Shown here piece by piece: positions 26,224-37,391 of a stretch of 64,000 bases of DNA; position 1 is the stretch's first letter; every line of letters starts with the position of its first letter. The stretch covers positions 1 to 64,000 of the IMG/VR virus record IMGVR_UViG_3300033145_001136; one strand, 5' to 3'. The notes under the pieces are model-generated. The model saw nothing but the letters and a program-made list of their open reading frames with translations. It did no database searches and was not told the DNA's origin. Made by a program: the position numbers and the translations under genes. Source of the stretch: a virus.

Positions 26224-26935
26224 TTCTTATCTCTTCCACTATGGGATCTATCTCACCATACAAAGTGTCAATCGATATCACATTATCTTCCCATTCCATT
26301 GGCACAAATTGCTGCACATCCTTTGAAAGTATGACCGTGCATATACCCTGTGATGCAGCGGCTAGTGCCTCTTCTCCCCTTCTACCGATCACAATGTCCG
26401 ATTGCTTAATATATGCCCATTCCTGTATATAGTCATATGGCTTAGTCGATTCTATTACCTGTACATATGTTGGTAATGCGCCCGTAGGCATTCCGCGATT
26501 CCCCAATATTATAAAATGCAAATCATCGTTAGTCCGCTTAAGTACGTCAATAAGTACTGCAACCCAGTGTAAGGTTGCACATAACGTCGATATAACAAAA
26601 CATATTACTGGGGTATCGAAATCCGCTTGGATTGATACAGGGACCGGTGTATATAGAATAATTTCTTTAGGGATTTTGTGTTTTGGGCTAGTTATACTGG
26701 GATTTATGTATGATTTATGTTTAGTGGCGCTTGTCAACAACGCAACATCAAATATCTCTAGATAATTTACGGTTAGCCATGGAACAGTACTAAACATCGA
26801 TTTTGCAATGGGGAGGATGTTTGGGGAGGTCTCAAGGTCTAACTCTACATCGTCGTCCTGCTCCGCTATACCGCATAGCTTCGCATACAATATGAAAACG
26901 TCTTCTGCGGTGGCTGGGGTTGAGTAGTATATCAT
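26210..26935 (-). CDS. Degenerate GT-B (GT9-like) glycosyltransferase
   Basis: C-terminal IKQSDIVIGRRGEEALAAASQGICTVIL echoes the GT9 'i..ad.vig.DSG..HlA.a.g..tv.l' pattern. Also HWVAVLIDVL...HFIILG. Confidence 0.4.
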   Translation of the reverse strand: MIYYSTPATAEDVFILYAKLCGIAEQDDDVELDLETSPNILPIAKSMFSTVPWLTVNYLEIFDVALLTSATKHKSYINPSITSPKHKIPKEIILYTPVPVSIQADFDTPVICFVISTLCATLHWVAVLIDVLKRTNDDLHFIILGNRGMPTGALPTYVQVIESTKPYDYIQEWAYIKQSDIVIGRRGEEALAAASQGICTVILSKDVQQFVPMEWEDNVISIDTLYGEIDPIVEEIRNGRW

Positions 26936-27669
26936 ATTGACCGTATCTCCTCCACCCATTCACAGATGTCTGGATGTGGATCCCGAAACGCTCGTATTGC
27001 TAAATCTACGAGTTTTTTGTTATTTGCTAGTTTGTGCATTATTGGGTGGCCTATATACGTACGCCACCTATCAAATACTTTCATACTGTCTGCAGTATCG
27101 GCATAATTAAATGCATCGAAACTAGATCCACCACCCTCACGAGTTACTTTAACATATGGCTTAAAGCAGTCTGGTGTAAGGCCCAAATATTCACCTATTT
27201 GTGCCCTATATGCATGCGACATAACCCACCTATTATATGATATTTGCAGCGTATCTATTGGTAAGTATGCTGTACTAATATATTCTTCGCACAGCTCAAG
27301 ATATATGTTTATCGTTCTCTCCGATAGTCGCCCATTATTCCCTTTCATATTAAGCCAACTAGCTGCCCAATTAAATGGATCACGTACCATGACAATATTT
27401 TTTACCTTATCACCATGCTCTGGAACTCTTTTCTGTATTAAGCCTACCTCATCTGGCCAATCAGCAGGTGTCTCTACACTAGTAACAAGTAATTCAACAT
27501 GTTTAGTTGAATGTAAACTATAACTCATCCTCCGTTGCATAGAATACTCATCACCAAAAGCATTATTAAAGTATTGCCACGATCCACCAGAATGGTCAAG
27601 TATCCAGTGAATAATTGGGTGGTGCCCGGAGCGACCCATCGCCCAAACCCTTATGTCATCAAAGTTCAT
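26932..27669 (-). CDS. Sulfotransferase-like P-loop protein (paralog 1)
   Basis: GRSGHHPIIHWI, VRDPFNWAASW, ISYNRW, GGGSSFD, VFDRW. Confidence 0.6.
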   Translation of the reverse strand: MNFDDIRVWAMGRSGHHPIIHWILDHSGGSWQYFNNAFGDEYSMQRRMSYSLHSTKHVELLVTSVETPADWPDEVGLIQKRVPEHGDKVKNIVMVRDPFNWAASWLNMKGNNGRLSERTINIYLELCEEYISTAYLPIDTLQISYNRWVMSHAYRAQIGEYLGLTPDCFKPYVKVTREGGGSSFDAFNYADTADSMKVFDRWRTYIGHPIMHKLANNKKLVDLAIRAFRDPHPDICEWVEEIRSI

Positions 27670-28393
27670 TAGGTAGCTCCGTTAATTTTTGCATATCCAT
27701 ATTGAAAATCTCTAATGATATTTCTTGCATACGCGAATGCGCAGCAAGTCTTTGCATGTATGGGTGTTCTTTGTATAATTTATATCTATTTAGCACGTCC
27801 ATTTGATCTGCTCTTCCTAAATATCGACGTCCATCGAAGCTAGATCCCTTACCAAATAGCGGCACGCCCATATATTGTTTCCAGCACGATTTTCGCAGCC
27901 CAAGCAACTCTCCTAATTGTACGCGATACGCTTCGCTAGTAAACCAATTATTATAATTAATCGGTATAAAAGGCTCTTCTAGTCTAGTTGTTAATCTTAA
28001 GTATTCTCGCGCATACTCCATATAACCAAACATAAACGTGCAATATACTTCGCCGGTATAGGTTTCCGTGTGAGGCCACCATTTCTTAATTGTACTCGCA
28101 AGCGTATTTAAAGGATCTCTCAGTGTTACTATATTTACACTGTGCATCCCGTCTGTCTTATATGTAAATAATTCTGATGGGAATAGGCTACTTTCAATAT
28201 TAACAAGCGCACCCATTTTTTTGTGCTGTGTTATCGTTATGTATTCTGATTTAACTTTATCTAGCCATTCAGTAGTTTGGGCCAAGCGACGCGTATAGTC
28301 AAGAAGGCCATCGTGATGTGTCCATATCCAGTCATTAACAGCATTGTGCCCCGTACGTGGCGGTGCATATACCCTGTAGTCATTATACTTCAT
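27659..28393 (-). CDS. Sulfotransferase-like P-loop protein (paralog 2)
   Basis: PRTGHNAVNDWI, LRDPLNTLAS, INYNNWF, GKGSSFD, VLNRY. Confidence 0.6.
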   Translation of the reverse strand: MKYNDYRVYAPPRTGHNAVNDWIWTHHDGLLDYTRRLAQTTEWLDKVKSEYITITQHKKMGALVNIESSLFPSELFTYKTDGMHSVNIVTLRDPLNTLASTIKKWWPHTETYTGEVYCTFMFGYMEYAREYLRLTTRLEEPFIPINYNNWFTSEAYRVQLGELLGLRKSCWKQYMGVPLFGKGSSFDGRRYLGRADQMDVLNRYKLYKEHPYMQRLAAHSRMQEISLEIFNMDMQKLTELPNEL

Positions 28394-29165
28394 TTAGCAG
28401 ATCTTTCAGTATTGTTCTACTAATGTCCATATCTACTTCATGAACTTTACCATATGTGAACGCCTCATCAACCACAAGATTGATATCAATCTCTTCATCC
28501 AGCGTAATATCAAGCTCGCCAATCATAATTGGGATGTCCACTCCCATATATTTGGATATGCTCGGTAGCAAGTATCCAAGCGCTTTACCATGCGGCACAC
28601 CGTAAAACCCTGTTAAGGGATATGACAAAGCGTGCAATAAATTGGTACCAGTTACTTCGATCAATTCACCAGCGGCATTGCCCAATTTCACAAGAGCAGA
28701 TGGATTAGCGATATACTTTATATCACCCAAAATATCTATAGCCCGATCCACGATTTCAACTGTGGCATTAATAGACCACATACTGTCAAGGCAATGGCTA
28801 ATAACATCATATAATGAGTACCTAAACATATACATGGGCAAATCCGCAGCAAACTCGTCGACTATTTCCACCTGGCTTGGTTTATATCTTCTCACAGAGC
28901 ACTTACGCGGCCCATCCCAGTAAACAGCCCATGACGTTACTGCAGATCCTGCACCCGTTGTTGGATAGCATTTTATTGGGGTTTTTGATAATATCTTTGC
29001 TGTGTCTATCACCGCACCTCCACCTATTGCCACCACCGATTCATAGAAGCCCAATGCAGAAATGTCCGTTGGCGCGGCTTCTACTACAAAAATATGTTCA
29101 AAATCCGCTTCTAAGAATTTCTTTGTAGACTTAGAACAAACTAACAAAGTATCTACCTTGTCCAC
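28383..29165 (-). CDS. Phosphonoacetaldehyde reductase (Fe-containing alcohol dehydrogenase, PhpC/FomC-like)
   Basis: IGGGAVIDTAK, PTTGAGS.VT, DVISHCLDS and HALSYPLT...VPHG (metal ligands). It is coupled to the ppd genes. Confidence 0.8.
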   Translation of the reverse strand: MDKVDTLLVCSKSTKKFLEADFEHIFVVEAAPTDISALGFYESVVAIGGGAVIDTAKILSKTPIKCYPTTGAGSAVTSWAVYWDGPRKCSVRRYKPSQVEIVDEFAADLPMYMFRYSLYDVISHCLDSMWSINATVEIVDRAIDILGDIKYIANPSALVKLGNAAGELIEVTGTNLLHALSYPLTGFYGVPHGKALGYLLPSISKYMGVDIPIMIGELDITLDEEIDINLVVDEAFTYGKVHEVDMDISRTILKDLLNEV

Positions 29166-29617
29166 AATGCCTCCTTTACCTCTACTGTGTTAATTCTACT
29201 ATCCACATCAACCCTGTCTGCTTTACCATCATTAGTTATTTTTATAATTTCCGTCACACCGGGATATTGCCCCTCCAACCTAGAACACTTAAATCCGCCC
29301 ACAGATTCATGGCATCCGTTGTCTAACACATAGACATATAGATTACTAAGGGCGTAATCTCGTATTGTATGCGTTATGCCAAGATGCATCAATAAGGCAG
29401 CGTCTCCGCTAATAACAACTATTTCCTTATCACTATTTAACGCCATACCAAGACCTATACATGGAGCCAACCCCATGCTACCCTGCATATAAAAGATGTT
29501 TTTCCGTAATGGGTACATATTATATGTTGCTCTAGATATGTACCCGGTACTTGTTACATACACCGCATCACCATGTTTATCAAAAATGTATCGTAGTGCT
29601 GCCTCTCTACTAATCAT
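29153..29617 (-). CDS. Phosphonopyruvate decarboxylase, beta (TPP-binding) subunit
   Basis: STGYISR, FYMQGSMG and the TPP motif GDAALLMHLG...LDNGCHESVGG. Confidence 0.88.
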   Translation of the reverse strand: MISREAALRYIFDKHGDAVYVTSTGYISRATYNMYPLRKNIFYMQGSMGLAPCIGLGMALNSDKEIVVISGDAALLMHLGITHTIRDYALSNLYVYVLDNGCHESVGGFKCSRLEGQYPGVTEIIKITNDGKADRVDVDSRINTVEVKEALWTR

Positions 29618-29984
29618 AGCTCACCTCATAGTTACCATATCCCAAAACTACCAGTAAATCCACATCACATCTACCCATTACCTCATGTTGAAACGGAGCC
29701 GTCCTATGTCCAATTATAAGTAACGGCTCGATACCATATGGCATACATAGGCTAGCCAATGGGTTTATAGCGTTACCCAATCCTGAATTTTGCATATACA
29801 CACATGTCTTTTTACCAGCCAATTCTGCGCCAACAGCTATACCTATCGCCTGTGACTCATGCGTAGCTATGACATGCTCCACACCAGAGTCGATGATATC
29901 CTGTATAAATCCTTTTAAGGAACTATCCGGAACCCCGACAAAGAAATCATACCCCTGGTCCATTAATTTCTGTACACTAATCAT
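29610..29984 (-). CDS. Phosphonopyruvate decarboxylase, alpha subunit
   Basis: [42 protein letters not shown]. Confidence 0.88.
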
Positions 29985-31251
29985 TTGGTATCATCTCCAC
30001 GATATCTCTTATTGGCATACATTGTCGGTTCGCTTCAAAGCACCGTCCATGCATTAGGATCACCTTGGCTACGTCTATCATTGCTGGGTAGGCTGCCCTC
30101 AAAAGATGATTCGCATAAATAACCACGCTAACGCCCATCGCCGCAAGTTCTGACTCGAGAATGTAGCCATATGTGGATGGCACTACCACCACCGGTACTT
30201 TACCACTATATTTCTCCATGAATTGGACAATTTCTGTGACCGATTGCTGCTTACTATGTATCATAATCGCATCAGCACCAGCATTAACATATGCCTCTGC
30301 TCTATCCAGCGCATCATCCAGCCCCTTACCCAATATAAAACTTTCTATTCTGGCGATAATCATGAAATCTTCTGTTACCTGCGCACGTTTACCCGCCTGG
30401 ATTTTTTCACAGAACCCCTCTATTGTATCTTGCGTCTGATCGGACGTATTTTCAAATAGAGAATTCCGTTTCAAGCCAATCTTGTCCTCCACAATAGCCG
30501 CAGACACACCAAAACGTTCTAAATTCTTAACCATTGATGTAAAGTGTTCTATTGGACCGCCATTGTCCACATCTACAATCATCGGTTTCGTTGTAACTCC
30601 AAAAATCTCGTTGATGGTATGGTCTATGGTAGTAATGTCGACAATTTGATTATCTGGCTTGCCCTTTGAAGTAGAGTGCGTAAGACTGCTTAACCACATA
30701 CCATCAAATCCATATCCATCAAATTCAGTTTTTTCCACAATAAGCCCCGTCAACCCATTATGGACCTCAAGAATGCGCACAGTTTCTTTGGATTCAATTA
30801 AACGTCTTAATGTTCCCATACGTACGCCGGGAGTTGTGCCCAATTCTTTTATAGCCTTATGAAGTTGTGTAGACGAAATGCCTTCGGTATATGGTATTTC
30901 TATTAATTCGCCACCCCAATTGGTCAATATATCTATAACTCTTTCCCTTGTTTTTCTTTGCGGCCCCTCTTTCCAATCGTCACCATGTACCACAAACGCC
31001 GGTTGTAACAAAAGTAAATTTTCGGTATAGTCCAACGTATCTTGCGGCATAACCTCGTCCACATACCTAATACTCTTAATGATCGTTTCTCTCTGTCCAT
31101 AAGTCAATGCCGGGAGTCGCTTATATGACGCTATTGCTTCATCAGTCAATAGCCCAACTATAACTTCTCCATATTCACTTGCTTCCCTGAGAACATTGAT
31201 GTGCCCCTGGTGAATTAGGTCAGCGCTCATGCCAACATAGACTAAGCTCAT
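29977..31251 (-). CDS. pepM: Cytidylyltransferase-phosphoenolpyruvate mutase fusion (Fom1/AepX-type)
   Basis: N-terminal DLIHQGH (HxGH), VHGDDW and YTEGISST. The C-terminal domain has the PepM signature [10 protein letters not shown] plus WLSSL, DVDNGG, IARIES and YANHLLRA. Confidence 0.95.
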
Positions 31252-32105
31252 AACAACTCCTCCAGTACATCAACGAATCTGCTTGCTGCAACCCCTTGAT
31301 ACTCACACAACATCTTTGAATGCCTCAACCGTTCTTCCTCTAAATAAAGTGGGTCATTAATATACCGTATCACCGCCATTTCCATCTCTTCTTGCGAATG
31401 TGCAACAATCGCGGCCTCATTAGCACACCCAGAAATATGAGAGTTGTCAACCCCCCATCGCGCATCCCCAATTAATATAGTCGGTATATTCAACACTATT
31501 GACTCAAGGTAGATCGAAGAATAATCAGATATTACCACTCCAGCCTCCATCATGTCTTCGTTTACAGATCTTGGATTAACACTATATGCCGGATGTGGTC
31601 GCACGCGAATACAAAATCCATATCTTTCCAAAGCCATAATCGCTATTTTATCGCCAGCATACACATTAGGCGATTTTTTATGATGTGTTGGTGCATATAG
31701 AGCCCATTTACCATTTATGTTGTTAAATAGTTTATCTAGCCTTGGCATGCCAACCACCTTAATCGACAAGCCATGCATCTCATGCCACTCCGCCCAAGCC
31801 TCGGAGAATGTAAAAATAAAATCGGAGTTTTTCTGGAGATCTGCTTTAAACTTTGGTTCGGTATAGAAAGCATTTTGTGGAACCACCGGGAACGCATGCC
31901 CTATCCAAACGCCCCTACCACCCATTCTGGTGCATGCCTCATCTGGTTGTATTGTAAAATCCGCATCGTCCCAATATGCCCTATAATCATCACATATTAT
32001 GGATTCGTGCCCTCGCCTAAGTAACTCCTCATGAATGTCTGTACAATATTCTTCATGAAATTTAAAAACCGAACAGTTATGTATAACTTTCATTGTGTTC
32101 TCCAC
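31248..32105 (-). CDS. CDP-glycerol glycerophosphotransferase (TagB/TagF) family protein
   Basis: [33 protein letters not shown]. Confidence 0.75.
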
Positions 32106-33211
32106 AATGACTCATAATATATGTGATCATCAATTGACGGATCTGTTACATCATCTTCTATCCAACTTTGTAACTCCTCTACCTCGCTTGTTAGTAGCTC
32201 CCAGTCCAGTTTTTCAGATTTACAATTTTTTGCTATTAATTTATCTAAATCACCAGGTACGAAATCACGAGTCAAATGTTGAAAAAATAGTCTATGATTT
32301 TTATGCAAAAAATAGCCACCGGGCTTGGAAATCTTGTTTATCAATGCTACATAATTAAGTACTACCTCATTGGGCATTTCCGTTAGGCTATGGGAATTAA
32401 ATACTAGGTCGGCAATGTTATCCTGGAAATAGGCGGGATCATATGCGCATCCAGAGGGCAATAACAAAATATCATTATCACCATCATCTTGCTCTCCAAA
32501 TAAAACAATTTTTTTATCGGGTAGGGCATGTATTAAGAAAAATGCGGAAAGAACACCTACTTGTGGCAAGTCGATTGATATATATTGCCCATCAAAATCG
32601 TTAAACTTAAATAAGTGATATGGGAAAGAACCCCACCCACCACCAATTTCAACTATTGTGTTTTTGTTGTCCGCTAAAATATTGCTAATCTGGTATGCAT
32701 TGTATGACTGACGCATCGCTGCTCTTATCAGCACACCTTTCCCATCAGTTGATTCGTACCCAAAAAAGTTCCCAAGGCCAATAGGGTAAAATAACGACTC
32801 CTCACTAATCACACCACTTGTCAGCTCTCTCCATTTTTCAATTTGCCATAATGTTGCGTCCACAAACCAATCAAACCCATATTGCTTAACAATTTTTATA
32901 TCATCATATAAGGATAATCCTTGTGTTGCTGGTTTTCGCCCAAAATTGAACAAGAATTTGCTAAGTGGAGCAATATCACCAAATTTAATTAGCCTATCTA
33001 TCGCAGTTATTATATTTGATGGATGCCACAGATCTGTTCCCACTGGTATAGATACCAAATCGGTATTTAAGTGCGGCATATCTTGCCCATATGCCATAGA
33101 CACATTGTAAAAATTGATAAGCCTTTCATACGTTTCATCTGATAAACTACTGTTTATCTTCGTTCGACCATGTGAGGCCGTTAACCCATCAACAGTTATT
33201 ATTTTGTCCAT
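32090..33211 (-). CDS. Putative sugar O-methyltransferase
   Basis: IVEIGGGWG, YISIDLP, DLVFNSHSLTEM...YV. Confidence 0.75.
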   Translation of the reverse strand: MDKIITVDGLTASHGRTKINSSLSDETYERLINFYNVSMAYGQDMPHLNTDLVSIPVGTDLWHPSNIITAIDRLIKFGDIAPLSKFLFNFGRKPATQGLSLYDDIKIVKQYGFDWFVDATLWQIEKWRELTSGVISEESLFYPIGLGNFFGYESTDGKGVLIRAAMRQSYNAYQISNILADNKNTIVEIGGGWGSFPYHLFKFNDFDGQYISIDLPQVGVLSAFFLIHALPDKKIVLFGEQDDGDNDILLLPSGCAYDPAYFQDNIADLVFNSHSLTEMPNEVVLNYVALINKISKPGGYFLHKNHRLFFQHLTRDFVPGDLDKLIAKNCKSEKLDWELLTSEVEELQSWIEDDVTDPSIDDHIYYESLWRTQ

Positions 33212-33924
33212 AATGCTTTCTGATAATCGGAATAAAATGTGACCACGTTTTTGTAGTATGGTTCCAATTTAAGTCCTAGTTTCACCAATGTGTTCGTAAA
33301 TGGGACTTCTCCAGCCCATACATGATGGTCTACATTGGTTTCTTCTTCTGGCCCTTTATAGTGTGGAATACACCCATGAACTGCAACAATTTCATCTATG
33401 TATTCCCTACTGGTACAGCCAGCTCCACCATGCACGTGCTCTGTTGATCTACCCCTATGGCCAAGCTCCCCATGTACAGCTACATATGCAATCAACTGCT
33501 CACTATTCAATTGCCCTATACACCCCATTATACAATGTTGCTCAATAAGTAATTGGTCATCCTCTAAAAAAATCCAGTACTCATATTGTTCCCGCAACTG
33601 TTTAAATGCGTAATTATATCCCCCAAAAGCTCTCCCAACATTCTCCCTGGTTAATATAACCATTTCCCCATTCTTTGTTTTTGTTCCATTTATTGATGCA
33701 AGATATTTATTCCCTGGTGTATACCCAATATCGTTATTAACGATAATGGTATCAACGCATATGCCATTATCTACCGATTGCTCTAGCTGATATATTACTT
33801 TTAACATCTCCAAAATACCTTCAGCATCTAATCCCTCTTGACTATGCGAAGGCCACGTGCGCACCTCTTTTTTCCTGTTAGCAAAAGTTGTTACAATTAC
33901 TTTTGCCACATTTGCGTTCGACAT
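33199..33924 (-). CDS. GT-A fold glycosyltransferase-like protein
   Basis: IIVNND, RENVGRAFGGYNYAF, YWIFLEDD. Confidence 0.6.
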   Translation of the reverse strand: MSNANVAKVIVTTFANRKKEVRTWPSHSQEGLDAEGILEMLKVIYQLEQSVDNGICVDTIIVNNDIGYTPGNKYLASINGTKTKNGEMVILTRENVGRAFGGYNYAFKQLREQYEYWIFLEDDQLLIEQHCIMGCIGQLNSEQLIAYVAVHGELGHRGRSTEHVHGGAGCTSREYIDEIVAVHGCIPHYKGPEEETNVDHHVWAGEVPFTNTLVKLGLKLEPYYKNVVTFYSDYQKALWTK

Positions 33925-33927
33925 GCC

Positions 33928-34527
33928 CTACCTCTTCACACAAATGGTGATTGATGGATATGGCCTAATAACAACTGCATCATAAATTGTGCCAATTAAT
34001 GGGTGTCCGTTTATTACTGGTTGAATTTTGGGTTTATTAAATTTCTTCATCCAGGGTACCATATCGCGTTTCTCACTCCCACCCTCGAATATTAGTACCC
34101 CGCCAGTAGTTAGCTTATACTCTGCATCTACCAAAAATCTATCAAATACAGCTCCATTATTGGATATGTCGACATGCATAAAATCAATTGTGTTATCTTC
34201 ATAGTCGTCTAGCACACTGTATGCATCTTTTTGAATTAAATCTACCCAATCCTGCAATGCTACAGCATCGATACTCAATTGTGTCTCACTCTGGAGCGTA
34301 TGGTGATATGCATACTTATCCCATAAATCATATGCATATAGATGCCCATAGTTGTTATCTCTCAATGCTGCAGCTATAAAAATAGTACTATATCCACCCA
34401 GTGTACCTATTTCTACGCACCTACTTGGATTTATGCAACGTAGTAATGAATAGAACATTTGTCCATAATTATTACGCTTATAAGAAGATGTTATTAAGTT
34501 TGCCTGTGCTATTACGTCATCTATCAT
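33928..34527 (-). CDS. Class I SAM-dependent methyltransferase (Methyltransf_24-like)
   Basis: CVEIGTLGGYST, YAYDLW, IDFMHVD, LTTGGVLIF. Confidence 0.8.
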   Translation of the reverse strand: MIDDVIAQANLITSSYKRNNYGQMFYSLLRCINPSRCVEIGTLGGYSTIFIAAALRDNNYGHLYAYDLWDKYAYHHTLQSETQLSIDAVALQDWVDLIQKDAYSVLDDYEDNTIDFMHVDISNNGAVFDRFLVDAEYKLTTGGVLIFEGGSEKRDMVPWMKKFNKPKIQPVINGHPLIGTIYDAVVIRPYPSITICVKR

Positions 34528-34528
34528 C

Positions 34529-35710
34529 TTACCAACCCTTCTTAATCATTTCGACTATATATTCCGCATCTTCTGATGTTACCCAATGCCCCACCGGGAT
34601 ACTAATTTGGTGCTTATCACAATATTCCAAGTTATGTAAGCATTCTTTTGATTTAAATTCACTAAATACCGCATATTTATCATTCCTGACATGTACAACA
34701 CTCGTATGTATATTTCTATCTCGCATCGCCCTAATAAAGTCATCACGTTTTTCAACAAATATAGTATATAAATAGTATGCAGACTTTGTGCCTACTTTCA
34801 TTTGCTCATGTAGCGGGACCGGTAGCGACAAAATCCCCGGCACATTCATTAGTTTGTCATCATAAAACATAGCGTTAAGTCTGCGTATTTCTAAATTCTC
34901 ATCAAGATATGGTAATTGTGATAGCCCAATTGTTGCAGAAACATCATTCATGTGCCCTTTCAGCCCAACCTCCATTATTTCCCAATCGTCGTGCCCTGTA
35001 AGTGCTTTTCTTCTATATCGCCTATCAATCCCATACCATCTCAAAACTCTGATATGTTCATAGTCTTCTGCCTTATATGTAGTAACTAGCCCACCATCTA
35101 TAGATGTCATTTGCTTAACAGCTTGTAGGGAAAACATGCAAAAGTCTGAGTGTTTGCCGAGCCCATAATTGCACACGCCCACAGGACGGCCATGATAGTA
35201 TGCCCCATTCGCATGTGCGGCATCCTCTATAATATTGATATATTGTCCAGGGCCTTGGCTCACAGCAGCTCTAAGCCTATACATATCAATTGGATATCCG
35301 CCCCAATGTACAGCGGCCACTGCTTTTGTCTTGTTGGTAATTAATTGTGACACTGAGTTTGGGTCTATATTACCTGTCTCTGTATCAACATCTGCCCAAA
35401 CTATTTTTGCTCCCGCTCGTAGAAACGGTAATGTCCCCGCAGTACACGTCAATGGGGACATTAATATCTCGTCCCCAGGTGCAATATCTAGCAACATAGC
35501 TATTAAATCAAGCCCTACTGTCCCGGAACACACAGCATTGACAAATGTGGTATCAAACCTCTCTGCGAATTTTCCCTCTAGCTCCTTCACCTTTGGCCCC
35601 TCGCCAATCCATCCACTCTCGAGTACTGGCCTTAATGCATCTAAAACTTCATCTACAGGAGGCATAAACACCTTAAGCAGTGGTATCATTTCTTTTGGCT
35701 TATACGACAT
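34529..35710 (-). CDS. DegT/DnrJ/EryC1/StrS family PLP-dependent sugar aminotransferase
   Basis: SGWIGEGP, SGTVGL, VHWGGYP, IEDAAHA, FSLQAVKQMTSIDGG (PLP Lys), LRWYGI. Confidence 0.92.
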   Translation of the reverse strand: MSYKPKEMIPLLKVFMPPVDEVLDALRPVLESGWIGEGPKVKELEGKFAERFDTTFVNAVCSGTVGLDLIAMLLDIAPGDEILMSPLTCTAGTLPFLRAGAKIVWADVDTETGNIDPNSVSQLITNKTKAVAAVHWGGYPIDMYRLRAAVSQGPGQYINIIEDAAHANGAYYHGRPVGVCNYGLGKHSDFCMFSLQAVKQMTSIDGGLVTTYKAEDYEHIRVLRWYGIDRRYRRKALTGHDDWEIMEVGLKGHMNDVSATIGLSQLPYLDENLEIRRLNAMFYDDKLMNVPGILSLPVPLHEQMKVGTKSAYYLYTIFVEKRDDFIRAMRDRNIHTSVVHVRNDKYAVFSEFKSKECLHNLEYCDKHQISIPVGHWVTSEDAEYIVEMIKKGW

Positions 35711-35712
35711 TA

Positions 35713-36528
35713 TTAATCTCCTAGTAGTTCACCAAGTCTAAACACTTCGTTTTCAAATTGCCTTGTTGAAAATCCCCATTTTTCCTCAAACATCTTATGT
35801 GCCACTTGCCTTGCGGACCATGCCCATTTGCTTGTAGTGGCCTCTACAAAATGGTACACAAGGCATTCGGGCACATTACACATTCTCTCTGGATGTCCTT
35901 TGTGGAATCTGTTATAAAATTGTACCACCCAATCAGGGTCAGAACAAAATCCTGGCCAAAATCTTGTATCCCACCCACCGAGATCAATCCAATCCTTTGT
36001 CCTAACTACCTGTGGCTCCATTGTTATTTTTCTGTCTTGTTTAATATTATTATCCACAAACCAAGTTAATAAAGCTTGCTCTCTAAAGGTTTCTATGTAA
36101 CGCCCAAAGTCTTTTTGAATAGTTATATCACCCCTGGAAGGCACAGGCTCAATCAGCGATAAAGCTCTCCAAATACCCGGTTCATCCGGATCGGTTATAC
36201 TTTCCGCCAGCGCTTTATCCCATCCTGGTAAATAATACATATCGTTGTCTGTCGGCAATACAAAATCAACTTCTATCTTCGGTGTTAATACCTCATACGC
36301 CAAAGGAATACCCTGGTTATCAGGAGAACATGTCCAATCAAAATGATGCCATTCTTCCTCAAGACACTCAGCGGCAAATCTATCTTTGTCAGAAAATTCG
36401 TTAAAATGTACCAAAAATTGATGATTATCTGGCCATTCGCTATTCTCTATTATGCTCCGTGCCGACAGCTTAACAAGGTCTGGTCGATTCAGTGATGGAA
36501 CTAATATTGCTACACTAATTTCATTCAT
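35713..36528 (-). CDS. Glycosyltransferase family 2
   Basis: ILVPSLNR, NQGIP, TDNDMYYLPGWD, GGWDTRFWPGFCSDPDW, VYHF. Start taken as ATG 36528 (ATGA overlap). Confidence 0.8.
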   Translation of the reverse strand: MNEISVAILVPSLNRPDLVKLSARSIIENSEWPDNHQFLVHFNEFSDKDRFAAECLEEEWHHFDWTCSPDNQGIPLAYEVLTPKIEVDFVLPTDNDMYYLPGWDKALAESITDPDEPGIWRALSLIEPVPSRGDITIQKDFGRYIETFREQALLTWFVDNNIKQDRKITMEPQVVRTKDWIDLGGWDTRFWPGFCSDPDWVVQFYNRFHKGHPERMCNVPECLVYHFVEATTSKWAWSARQVAHKMFEEKWGFSTRQFENEVFRLGELLGD

Positions 36529-37391
36529 GGCAAATCCCTTATGGTCTCTATCCAAGTTTCTATAGGGTGTAGGTGCCCAAATATTTGTATTGCCATATTC
36601 GTGAGTTCTTTGTCTTCAATGAGCTCTTTTAATTGTTTTGCCACACGTGGATCTTGCCAACGCTCCAGTACACGCATATTGTTAGCTTTCCCATCGTAAT
36701 CAAATTTATTGAAACTGCTCCCACCACCTCTCCATGGTATGTCATTATATGGGAGTGCGCATCCTGGTGCTAGATCAAATTTTTCCCCTATTTTTGCCCT
36801 ATACTCCGCGCTAAGGAACCACTCATTAAATAAAATAGGAATCAGTTGATATTCTGTTACATTTGTTTCCCCCAAAATTTCCCGACACAAACTTTTATAA
36901 CATTCTATATATTTTGGATTATCTAATACATCGTTCTTGTGCATAAGTCTACTAGCTGTCCAATTAAATGGATCTCGCAATATAAGGATATCGTACACAC
37001 GCCTGCTAGCTCCCCTCTTCCAGTATTTATGTCGTGCTACCCCCTTGTCTCCACGAAATAGTTCAGTTCTTTCAGTTGGTTGGTTCAGTTCTTGAATGGC
37101 TTCCCCTAACGAAAATTCTAGTTCTATGGAATACATGAAAGTCTCGCGATAAGGGAAACCATTCAAGATATCTAATGCACTTGTGATAGTTGTATGTGAA
37201 AGTTCTGCTCTGCATTCTCTCTGTGTATACCCCCGAAGCACTGAACAATTTCTAAGAGCCTTCTCCCTATCGAATACCCCCTGTATATGCATACATGGGA
37301 TCTGTGCATGGTATTCAATCCAATGCGTTACGGCCTGATGCCCGCCCCTACTTAAGGCAAACATCCTTAATTCTCGTTCATTAAATATCAT
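36525..37391 (-). CDS. Sulfotransferase-like P-loop protein (paralog 3)
   Basis: SRGGHQAVTHWI, LRDPFNWTASR, ILFNEWF, GGGSSFN, VLERW. Confidence 0.6.
   Translation of the reverse strand: MIFNERELRMFALSRGGHQAVTHWIEYHAQIPCMHIQGVFDREKALRNCSVLRGYTQRECRAELSHTTITSALDILNGFPYRETFMYSIELEFSLGEAIQELNQPTERTELFRGDKGVARHKYWKRGASRRVYDILILRDPFNWTASRLMHKNDVLDNPKYIECYKSLCREILGETNVTEYQLIPILFNEWFLSAEYRAKIGEKFDLAPGCALPYNDIPWRGGGSSFNKFDYDGKANNMRVLERWQDPRVAKQLKELIEDKELTNMAIQIFGHLHPIETWIETIRDLP

Follow-up and report, generated by a model that had tools for sequence, protein, structure and literature searches.

A minimal TagF-like enzyme encoded by a phage as a candidate transferase for cytidylyl-activated hydroxyethylphosphonate

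A 64,000-nucleotide window of DNA from a large aquatic phage (positions 1 to 64,000 of the IMG/VR record IMGVR_UViG_3300033145_001136) carries a minus-strand gene cluster in which a gene for a small TagF-like protein, the subject of this analysis, directly precedes a set of phosphonate biosynthesis genes. The source record spans 102,947 bp, with an estimated completeness of 66%, and encodes a portal, a primase-helicase and other phage genes. The TagF-like gene occupies 31248-32093 on the minus strand and has a predicted product of 281 amino acids (aa). In a list of open reading frames (ORFs) it appears as 31248..32105, with a GTG start at 32105, and the original prediction described it at the corresponding length of 285 aa. 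That ORF exists, but the ATG at 32093 is the likelier start, because it shares an ATGA with the TGA (32090-32092) that ends the gene before it, a GGAG Shine-Dalgarno sequence can be read 6 nt 5′ of it (32100..32103, minus strand), and the MKV encoded there matches the start in 21 of 21 homologs. The gene translationally coupled in this way on the upstream side encodes a NanM-like putative sugar O-methyltransferase (32090..33211, minus strand; TIGR04371, 73.8 bits). At its other end, the TGA of the TagF-like gene (31248-31250) overlaps the ATG (31249-31251) of a gene for a 424-aa cytidylyltransferase-PepM fusion (CyT-PepM), in agreement with the overlap between this stop and the pepM start that had been predicted.

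The 424-aa fusion combines a CTP_transf_like domain (PF01467, 46.9 bits) with a phosphoenolpyruvate (PEP) mutase (TIGR02320, 372 bits against a cut-off of 319.55). By sequence, its cytidylyltransferase (CyTase) domain (aa 1-140; 30832..31251, minus strand) is closely related to that of Fom1 (PDB 5x3d; 194.6 bits, E 4.8e-57), while the match to TagD (1coz) reached 51 bits. The Fom1 enzyme makes the cytidine monophosphate (CMP) conjugate of 2-hydroxyethylphosphonate (HEP), CMP-HEP, from HEP and CTP, according to Cho 2017 as cited in PMC6697681, and the phage domain is predicted to catalyze the same reaction. The PEP mutase domain (aa 148-424; 29977..30810, minus strand) carries the EDKX5NS motif. 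It is followed, in overlapping ORFs on the same strand, by a phosphonopyruvate decarboxylase (Ppd) that is split into an N-terminal (alpha) half of 124 aa (29610..29984; TIGR03297, 110 bits) and a C-terminal (beta) half of 154 aa (29153..29617; TIGR03297, 94 bits), and by a short Fe-dependent alcohol dehydrogenase (Fe-ADH) of 260 aa (28383..29165; TIGR03405, 69 bits). The latter is of the phosphonate type (PhpC/FomC-like), retains the GGGAVID, D..SH and H...PHG nucleotide- and metal-binding motifs, and is predicted to convert phosphonoacetaldehyde to HEP. Typical Fe-ADH members are about 355-380 aa long; the short form (about 250-260 aa) is conserved in related loci, where GGGxxxD/DxxxH/H...PHG are kept.

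PF01467 was found only once in the whole 102,947-bp record, in the CyT-PepM fusion, which upholds the earlier observation that there is no stand-alone glycerol-3-phosphate cytidylyltransferase and that the sole CyTase is fused to PepM. The record also contained no CyTase of the LicC/PntC type (PF12804), no CDP-OH_P_transf, sulfatase or radical SAM (Fom3-like) domain, and no LicD domain (PF04991), either in the TagF-like protein or elsewhere. Since there is thus no second cytidylyltransferase and no LicD, CDP-alcohol, sulfatase-type or Fom3-like gene, CMP-HEP, the product of the predicted pathway, is the only activated phospho-type donor for which the phage has a visible route. The TagF-like protein, in turn, is the only recognizable enzyme in the record that uses CMP as a leaving group.

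As judged from profiles and from its structural model, the TagF-like protein is a divergent but real TagF-like enzyme of the glycosyltransferase-B (GT-B) fold. The AF2 model has a predicted local distance difference test score (pLDDT) of 92.5, and its best structural match is TagF (Z 20.3, 265 aa aligned, root-mean-square deviation 3.1; Foldseek top match 3l7j), followed by TarL (Z 19.1), a TagF-like capsule polymerase (Z 18.5) and UDP-GlcNAc 2-epimerases (about 17). An hhalign comparison of the family with ten bona fide PF04464 proteins gave a probability of 99.9% and an E of 1.5e-35 over 284 columns, and the family profile matched TarL (8va1) at E 4.5e-5. The protein had been described as a short TagB/TagF-family catalytic domain; the family assignment stands, and the model is that of a complete, two-lobed GT-B enzyme and not of a catalytic half alone. 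An identity as a UDP-GlcNAc 2-epimerase was rejected because the structural Z of about 17 is below that of the TagF family, PF02350 has no match to the protein at E<=0.01, and the motifs are of the TagF type.

The family comprises 22 sequences of about 280 aa that share 36-58% identity and 32 invariant columns, including both catalytic histidines, and the GT-B N-lobe, on the acceptor side, is conserved across it. An exhaustive HMMER search returned only 28 cluster representatives at E<1e-30, and tblastn of the protein against 50,697 GenBank phage records gave no match, nor did PHROGs contain a family for it. The remoter HMMER matches were large multidomain proteins with strong PF04464 domains. 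Among these, P0065, P0070, P0073, P0076 and others have 1,400-3,400 aa and a C-terminal domain that matches the family at E 1e-25 to 1e-35, and the shorter multidomain matches P0075 and P0094, which were scanned with Pfam, have GT2 domains too. The phage protein has no hydrophobic segment (maximum 19-residue Kyte-Doolittle hydropathy, KD19, 1.25), an isoelectric point (pI) of 5.35, against a family median of 5.66, and a charge of -14.6. Of TagF, only residues 353-718 are matched by the model, and the picture of membrane association given here comes from hydropathy and charge.

The residues that matter for catalysis in the TagF family are present. H66 is invariant in the 22 sequences and aligns with the invariant histidine of the GHG motif (TagF H444, TarL H300), and H167-P168, also invariant, aligns with TarL H433, the second histidine, which contacts the CMP alpha-phosphate; mutating the two invariant histidines H300 and H433 inactivates TarL (PMC10901376). 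P135-T136 is likewise invariant, with P135 aligned in the HMMER alignment to TarL with P395 of the APT cytidine pocket, and D190-Y-S-S...E197 aligns with the SDYSS..E motif. The donor side is different. In TarL and TagF, the donor polyol (head-group) site is formed by the loop after the catalytic histidine (TarL 299-308), which has a conserved lysine (K306) and a PL or GAF motif. The corresponding loop of the phage protein (A67-N74, after H66) reads H-A-F-P-V-V-P-Q-N and is 2 residues longer than the canonical one; the lysine that is invariant in PF04464 enzymes is replaced by Gln73 (by His in one subclade), and the lysine of the canonical 'KP' is also lost, with Ile in its place.

We then considered the genomic setting of homologs of the TagF-like gene in 64 loci, which came from scans of viral, genome and metagenome collections and in which PepM was sought by tblastn with the window proteins. 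CyT-PepM was found in about 25 non-redundant loci and was directly adjacent to the TagF-like gene in about 15, where the two genes overlap, lie 9-33 bp apart with CyT-PepM downstream, or are divergent at 61-87 bp. Where it was not adjacent, CyT-PepM lay 1.1-7.6 kb from the TagF-like gene, as a rule accompanied by Ppd and Fe-ADH. PepM was present in all close relatives whose downstream flank reached 7 kb or more, and in the tree the PepM-linked loci fall in one clade (SH-aLRT 96). The original prediction had named the lack of a genomic association with pepM as evidence against itself; linkage was found wherever the flanks allow, apart from three nested lineages in which no PepM was seen and a stand-alone cytidylyltransferase is found instead. 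This enzyme is Fom1-type in L047/48 (162.7 bits to 5x3d), TagD/ECT-like in L051/52/54/55 and ECT/CCT-like in L058/59. The TagF-like/PepM pairing also occurs in a giant-virus metagenome-assembled genome (MAG) and in a Thermoplasmata (archaeal) MAG, where the locus is cut off at the contig end. The window and the homolog loci share only the phosphonate genes, a DegT-type sugar aminotransferase (34529-35710 in the window), a Methyltransf_24 protein (33928-34527) and a 241-aa protein with no Pfam match (33199-33924), the last three all on the minus strand and traveling with the module in other loci. It follows that the module moves between otherwise unrelated genomes, including that of the giant-virus MAG.

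The donor loop covaries with the partner cytidylyltransferase across these loci. The sequence H-[A/C]-x-P-x-x-P follows the catalytic histidine in all loci with a Fom1-type CyTase, including L048, where the CyTase is unfused, and H-G is found at this position in the two lineages with TagD/ECT/CCT-like enzymes (L051/52/54/55 and L058/59). This small covariation between donor loop and activating enzyme suggests, at the level of sequence, that the scaffold has switched head groups. A sister group that retains the lysine, as 'AKG', consists of L045/50/53, and a viral scan with the profile of this group returned no such loci.

In the converse search, which started from CyT-PepM, PepM was carried by 53 IMG/VR contigs, 31 of them with close CyT-PepM fusions. 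A TagF-like gene was present within 10 kb in only five contigs; in three it is a gene of the present clade, and the other two have a canonical PF04464 gene directly upstream. The gene directly upstream of viral CyT-PepM usually overlaps it, and this slot was found to hold several kinds of protein. The most frequent is a 408-aa family with no Pfam match, which adjoins CyT-PepM in 14 IMG/VR contigs, upstream in 12 and downstream in two more (L070:8778-10001; also L071-L075, L078-L080, L083-L085, L096 and L097), and is fused to it in L079. Its predicted fold is that of the alkaline phosphatase superfamily (Z 23.0 to sulfatases, 21.9 to YejM and 19.4 to the lipoteichoic acid synthase LtaP); Thr occupies the position of the nucleophile, and the metal motifs are HD and DHG. 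This family, a second candidate phosphonate transferase, and the TagF-like gene never co-occur in the contigs examined. The same slot is occupied by a LicD-domain protein in L082 (8667-9983), by sulfatase-family proteins in L095 (8553-9986) and L099 (8541-9974), and by a 459-aa family without assignment in L088-L090 (L088:8611-9987). The alternation of three unrelated families of phospho-head-group transferases in one coupled slot is best read as non-orthologous displacement of the activity that transfers an activated phosphonate.

Taken with the genes around it, the TagF-like gene probably encodes a minimal soluble phosphotransferase that uses CMP-HEP as donor, places the HEP-phosphonyl group on a hydroxyl of the glycan made by the phage cluster and releases CMP; we hold this with moderate confidence. 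The original prediction of HEP transfer from CMP-HEP to a sugar hydroxyl is thereby supported, each part of it that could be checked having stood up. In the pathway that we envisage, PepM would convert PEP to phosphonopyruvate, the split Ppd would decarboxylate this to phosphonoacetaldehyde, the Fe-ADH would yield HEP, and the Fom1-type CyTase domain would activate it as CMP-HEP. The TagF-like enzyme would then catalyze R-OH + CMP-HEP -> R-O-P(O)(O-)-CH2CH2OH + CMP. By analogy with TagF and TarL, H66 would take the proton from the hydroxyl of the acceptor, which would then attack the phosphorus of the phosphonate in line, and H167 would contact or protonate the CMP phosphate of the leaving group. 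The H-[A/C]-x-P-x-x-P-[Q/H]-N loop after H66 replaces the polyol loop and its lysine and would cradle the 2-hydroxyethyl group. A single addition is favored over polymerization, because the predicted protein is small and acidic and appears to be without the basic surfaces of the polymerases. Nearly all proteins of the cluster are without a hydrophobic segment, and the absence of membrane proteins and exporters from it may point to a soluble or protein-linked glycan as the acceptor.

Several observations weigh against this reading. The Pfam Glyphos_transf (PF04464) match of the protein barely passes the cut-off (23.8 against 22.1 bits) and is confined to residues 97-207. The 64 loci were picked for having a TagF-like gene, so the linkage carries an ascertainment bias; the displacement seen in the slot upstream of viral CyT-PepM supports the TagF-like assignment independently of that bias. 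The L051/52/54/55 and L058/59 lineages lie beside non-Fom1 CyTases and probably use other CDP-alcohol donors, and since they belong to the same clade and no PepM was seen in them, the TagF-like scaffold can serve other donors. Moreover, about 25 of the 31 close viral HEP modules have no TagF-like gene within 10 kb, so that the use of HEP does not in general depend on the TagF-like enzyme, which is one of several solutions. Finally, the record is about 66% complete, and a CDP-polyol may be supplied by the host. The protein would in that case be an ordinary polyol-phosphate transferase acting on host CDP-glycerol or CDP-ribitol, placed beside pepM only since both decorate the same glycan. The catalytic motifs of CDP-polyol transferases are indeed all retained, and within the clade two sublineages have TagD/ECT/CCT-like cytidylyltransferases as partners. 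We nevertheless regard this as unlikely, given that the donor polyol loop and the invariant lysine have been replaced, that no TagD, TarI or IspD-type enzyme is present in the record, and that the gene is translationally coupled to a Fom1-type CyTase in a pairing conserved in phages, a giant virus and an archaeal MAG.

The donor could also be a different CMP-phosphonate, either O-methylated HEP or an amino-phosphonate made with the aid of the conserved DegT-type aminotransferase. DegT and methyltransferases accompany the module, in L017/18/23 DegT immediately precedes the TagF-like gene, and the Fe-ADH is missing in the relatives L002/3 and L056/57. The window, however, has both an Fe-ADH of the phosphonate type and a CyTase closely related to Fom1, whose characterized substrate is HEP; DegT enzymes normally act on nucleoside diphosphate (NDP)-keto-sugars; and an HIBADH-type reductase in L056 could stand in for the alcohol dehydrogenase, all of which makes such a donor slightly less probable again. 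Lower still, we estimate, is the chance that the enzyme acts as a polymerase and links units from CMP-HEP to one another via the hydroxyl of HEP, giving a teichoic-acid-like poly(hydroxyethylphosphonate) chain. This hydroxyl is free, TagF and TarL are polymerases, and the sequence holds nothing against repeated addition, but the protein lacks an N-terminal polymerase domain and appears to lack basic patches, its size is that of single-addition enzymes or smaller, and its charge of -14.6 and pI of 5.35, like the family median of 5.66, suit a polyanionic product poorly. It is very improbable that no glycan transfer takes place at all, the protein being a CMP-HEP hydrolase (FomD-like, with water as the acceptor) or an inactive structural remnant. 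HEP cytidylylation is transient in fosfomycin biosynthesis, which would fit a hydrolase, yet there is no Fom3-type radical SAM enzyme here that needs CMP-HEP as an intermediate, and neither the conserved acceptor-side N-lobe nor the retention of 32 invariant columns, both catalytic histidines among them, in 22 sequences at 36-58% identity is expected of such a protein.

Three known systems are closest to the CMP-HEP transferase that we propose. With the wall-teichoic-acid enzymes TagF, TarL, TarF and TagB and the TagF-like capsule polymerases (PF04464; PDB 3L7I-M, 8VA1 and 8QOY) it has in common the GT-B fold, the two invariant histidines, the APT pocket and DYSS..E, and the predicted chemistry is the same, in that CMP is displaced from a cytidine-diphospho-type donor when a hydroxyl attacks its beta-phosphorus. 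The phage protein differs from the TagF catalytic domain in being about 100 residues shorter. It further differs from the TagF family in that it is acidic and probably soluble, with no membrane-binding helices or basic patches predicted, and in its donor loop, which has 2 additional residues and the exchanges of Lys for Gln/His and of the 'KP' Lys for Ile; moreover, it is virus-encoded and its predicted donor, CMP-HEP, has a C-P bond. The early fosfomycin pathway of Streptomyces (Fom1/Fom2/FomC) shares the CyTase-PepM fusion, Ppd and Fe-ADH that yield CMP-HEP, whereas the phage has neither Fom3 nor FomD and its CMP-HEP is predicted to be destined for glycan transfer instead of methylation and hydrolysis to an antibiotic. 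The Pnt pathway, with PntC and LicD-like transferases (Rice et al. 2019, PMC6697681), follows the same logic of cytidylyl activation and subsequent transfer to a cell-surface glycan, but the phage CyTase is PF01467 (Fom1-type) and not PF12804 (PntC), the phosphonate would be HEP and not 2-aminoethylphosphonate (AEP), and the transferase is TagF-like and not LicD-like. In both the Pnt and the phage systems, the transfer step is a proposed one.

How a phosphonate, once cytidylylated, is attached to a glycan is a recognized gap in knowledge: for Rice et al. 2019 (PMC6697681), who suggest only LicD-like enzymes, the steps of phosphonyl tailoring 'remain enigmatic', and in the literature searched we found no paper that links a TagF-family enzyme to phosphonates. 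What the present case contributes is a viral clade of minimal enzymes, the covariation of loop and partner and the pattern of displacement in the coupled slot. It is also an unusually tractable test case, being a small, acidic protein without membrane segments whose donor could be made with its own fused CyTase partner. We propose, as a tentative extension, that the virus-borne clade of 281-aa soluble TagF-like proteins with a rebuilt loop may be a dedicated CMP-HEP phosphonyl transferase and the first identified enzyme to esterify a phosphonate onto a glycan, and that for aquatic phages it may be exchangeable, in the same operon slot, with enzymes of the LicD-like and alkaline-phosphatase-fold kinds in the decoration of glycans with HEP during infection. 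HEP-ester polysaccharides occur in marine dissolved organic matter, and phages would, if this is true, be a source of them. In a survey from 2022, Ppm was absent from RefSeq viruses; 364 huge phages were scanned as well, and one NCLDV (nucleocytoplasmic large DNA virus) contig was reported as the sole viral case (PMC8942020). Among GenBank phages, we found PepM only in two small fecal 'Bacteriophage sp.' fragments, besides distant matches of the isocitrate lyase family. Given the 53 IMG/VR contigs with PepM, viral phosphonate synthesis appears to be common.

Some further features of the window and of the related loci were noted. Three sulfotransferase-like paralogs without Pfam or PHROG matches are encoded in the window (26932-28393 and 36525-37391), and the first of them overlaps the end of the Fe-ADH gene and would therefore be co-translated with the phosphonate genes. 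3′-Phosphoadenosine 5′-phosphosulfate (PAPS) and CMP-HEP are both nucleotide anhydrides, and these paralogs were considered as phosphonyl transferases; they were set aside, since they have no homologs in any of the 64 related loci. A blastn search of the neighboring phage genes against GenBank phage records returned nothing useful. B12-binding radical SAM proteins with a Fom3-like architecture are encoded at L088:6509-8017 and L052:6365-7840, and L052, which is without PepM, has a TagD-like CyTase, a LicD protein, the TagF-like gene, a sulfotransferase and NeuB. In L047/48, the TagF-like gene sits in a longer ORF (469-555 aa; L048:2-1669) with an N-terminal extension of at least about 170 aa. 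The giant-virus locus (L002 / L098, on a contig of IMGVR GVMAG-M-3300021958-32) comes from a TFIIB-encoding MAG; CyT-PepM is divergently adjacent to the TagF-like gene there, no recognizable Ppd or Fe-ADH lies within 10 kb, and DegT and a methyltransferase are also present. The 241-aa protein encoded at 33199-33924, which has no PHROG match either, has homologs in 10 of the related loci, where its gene frequently comes next after that of the Fe-ADH or adjoins DegT, and its EDDQ (DXD-like) motif suggests that it may be a GT-A glycosyltransferase.

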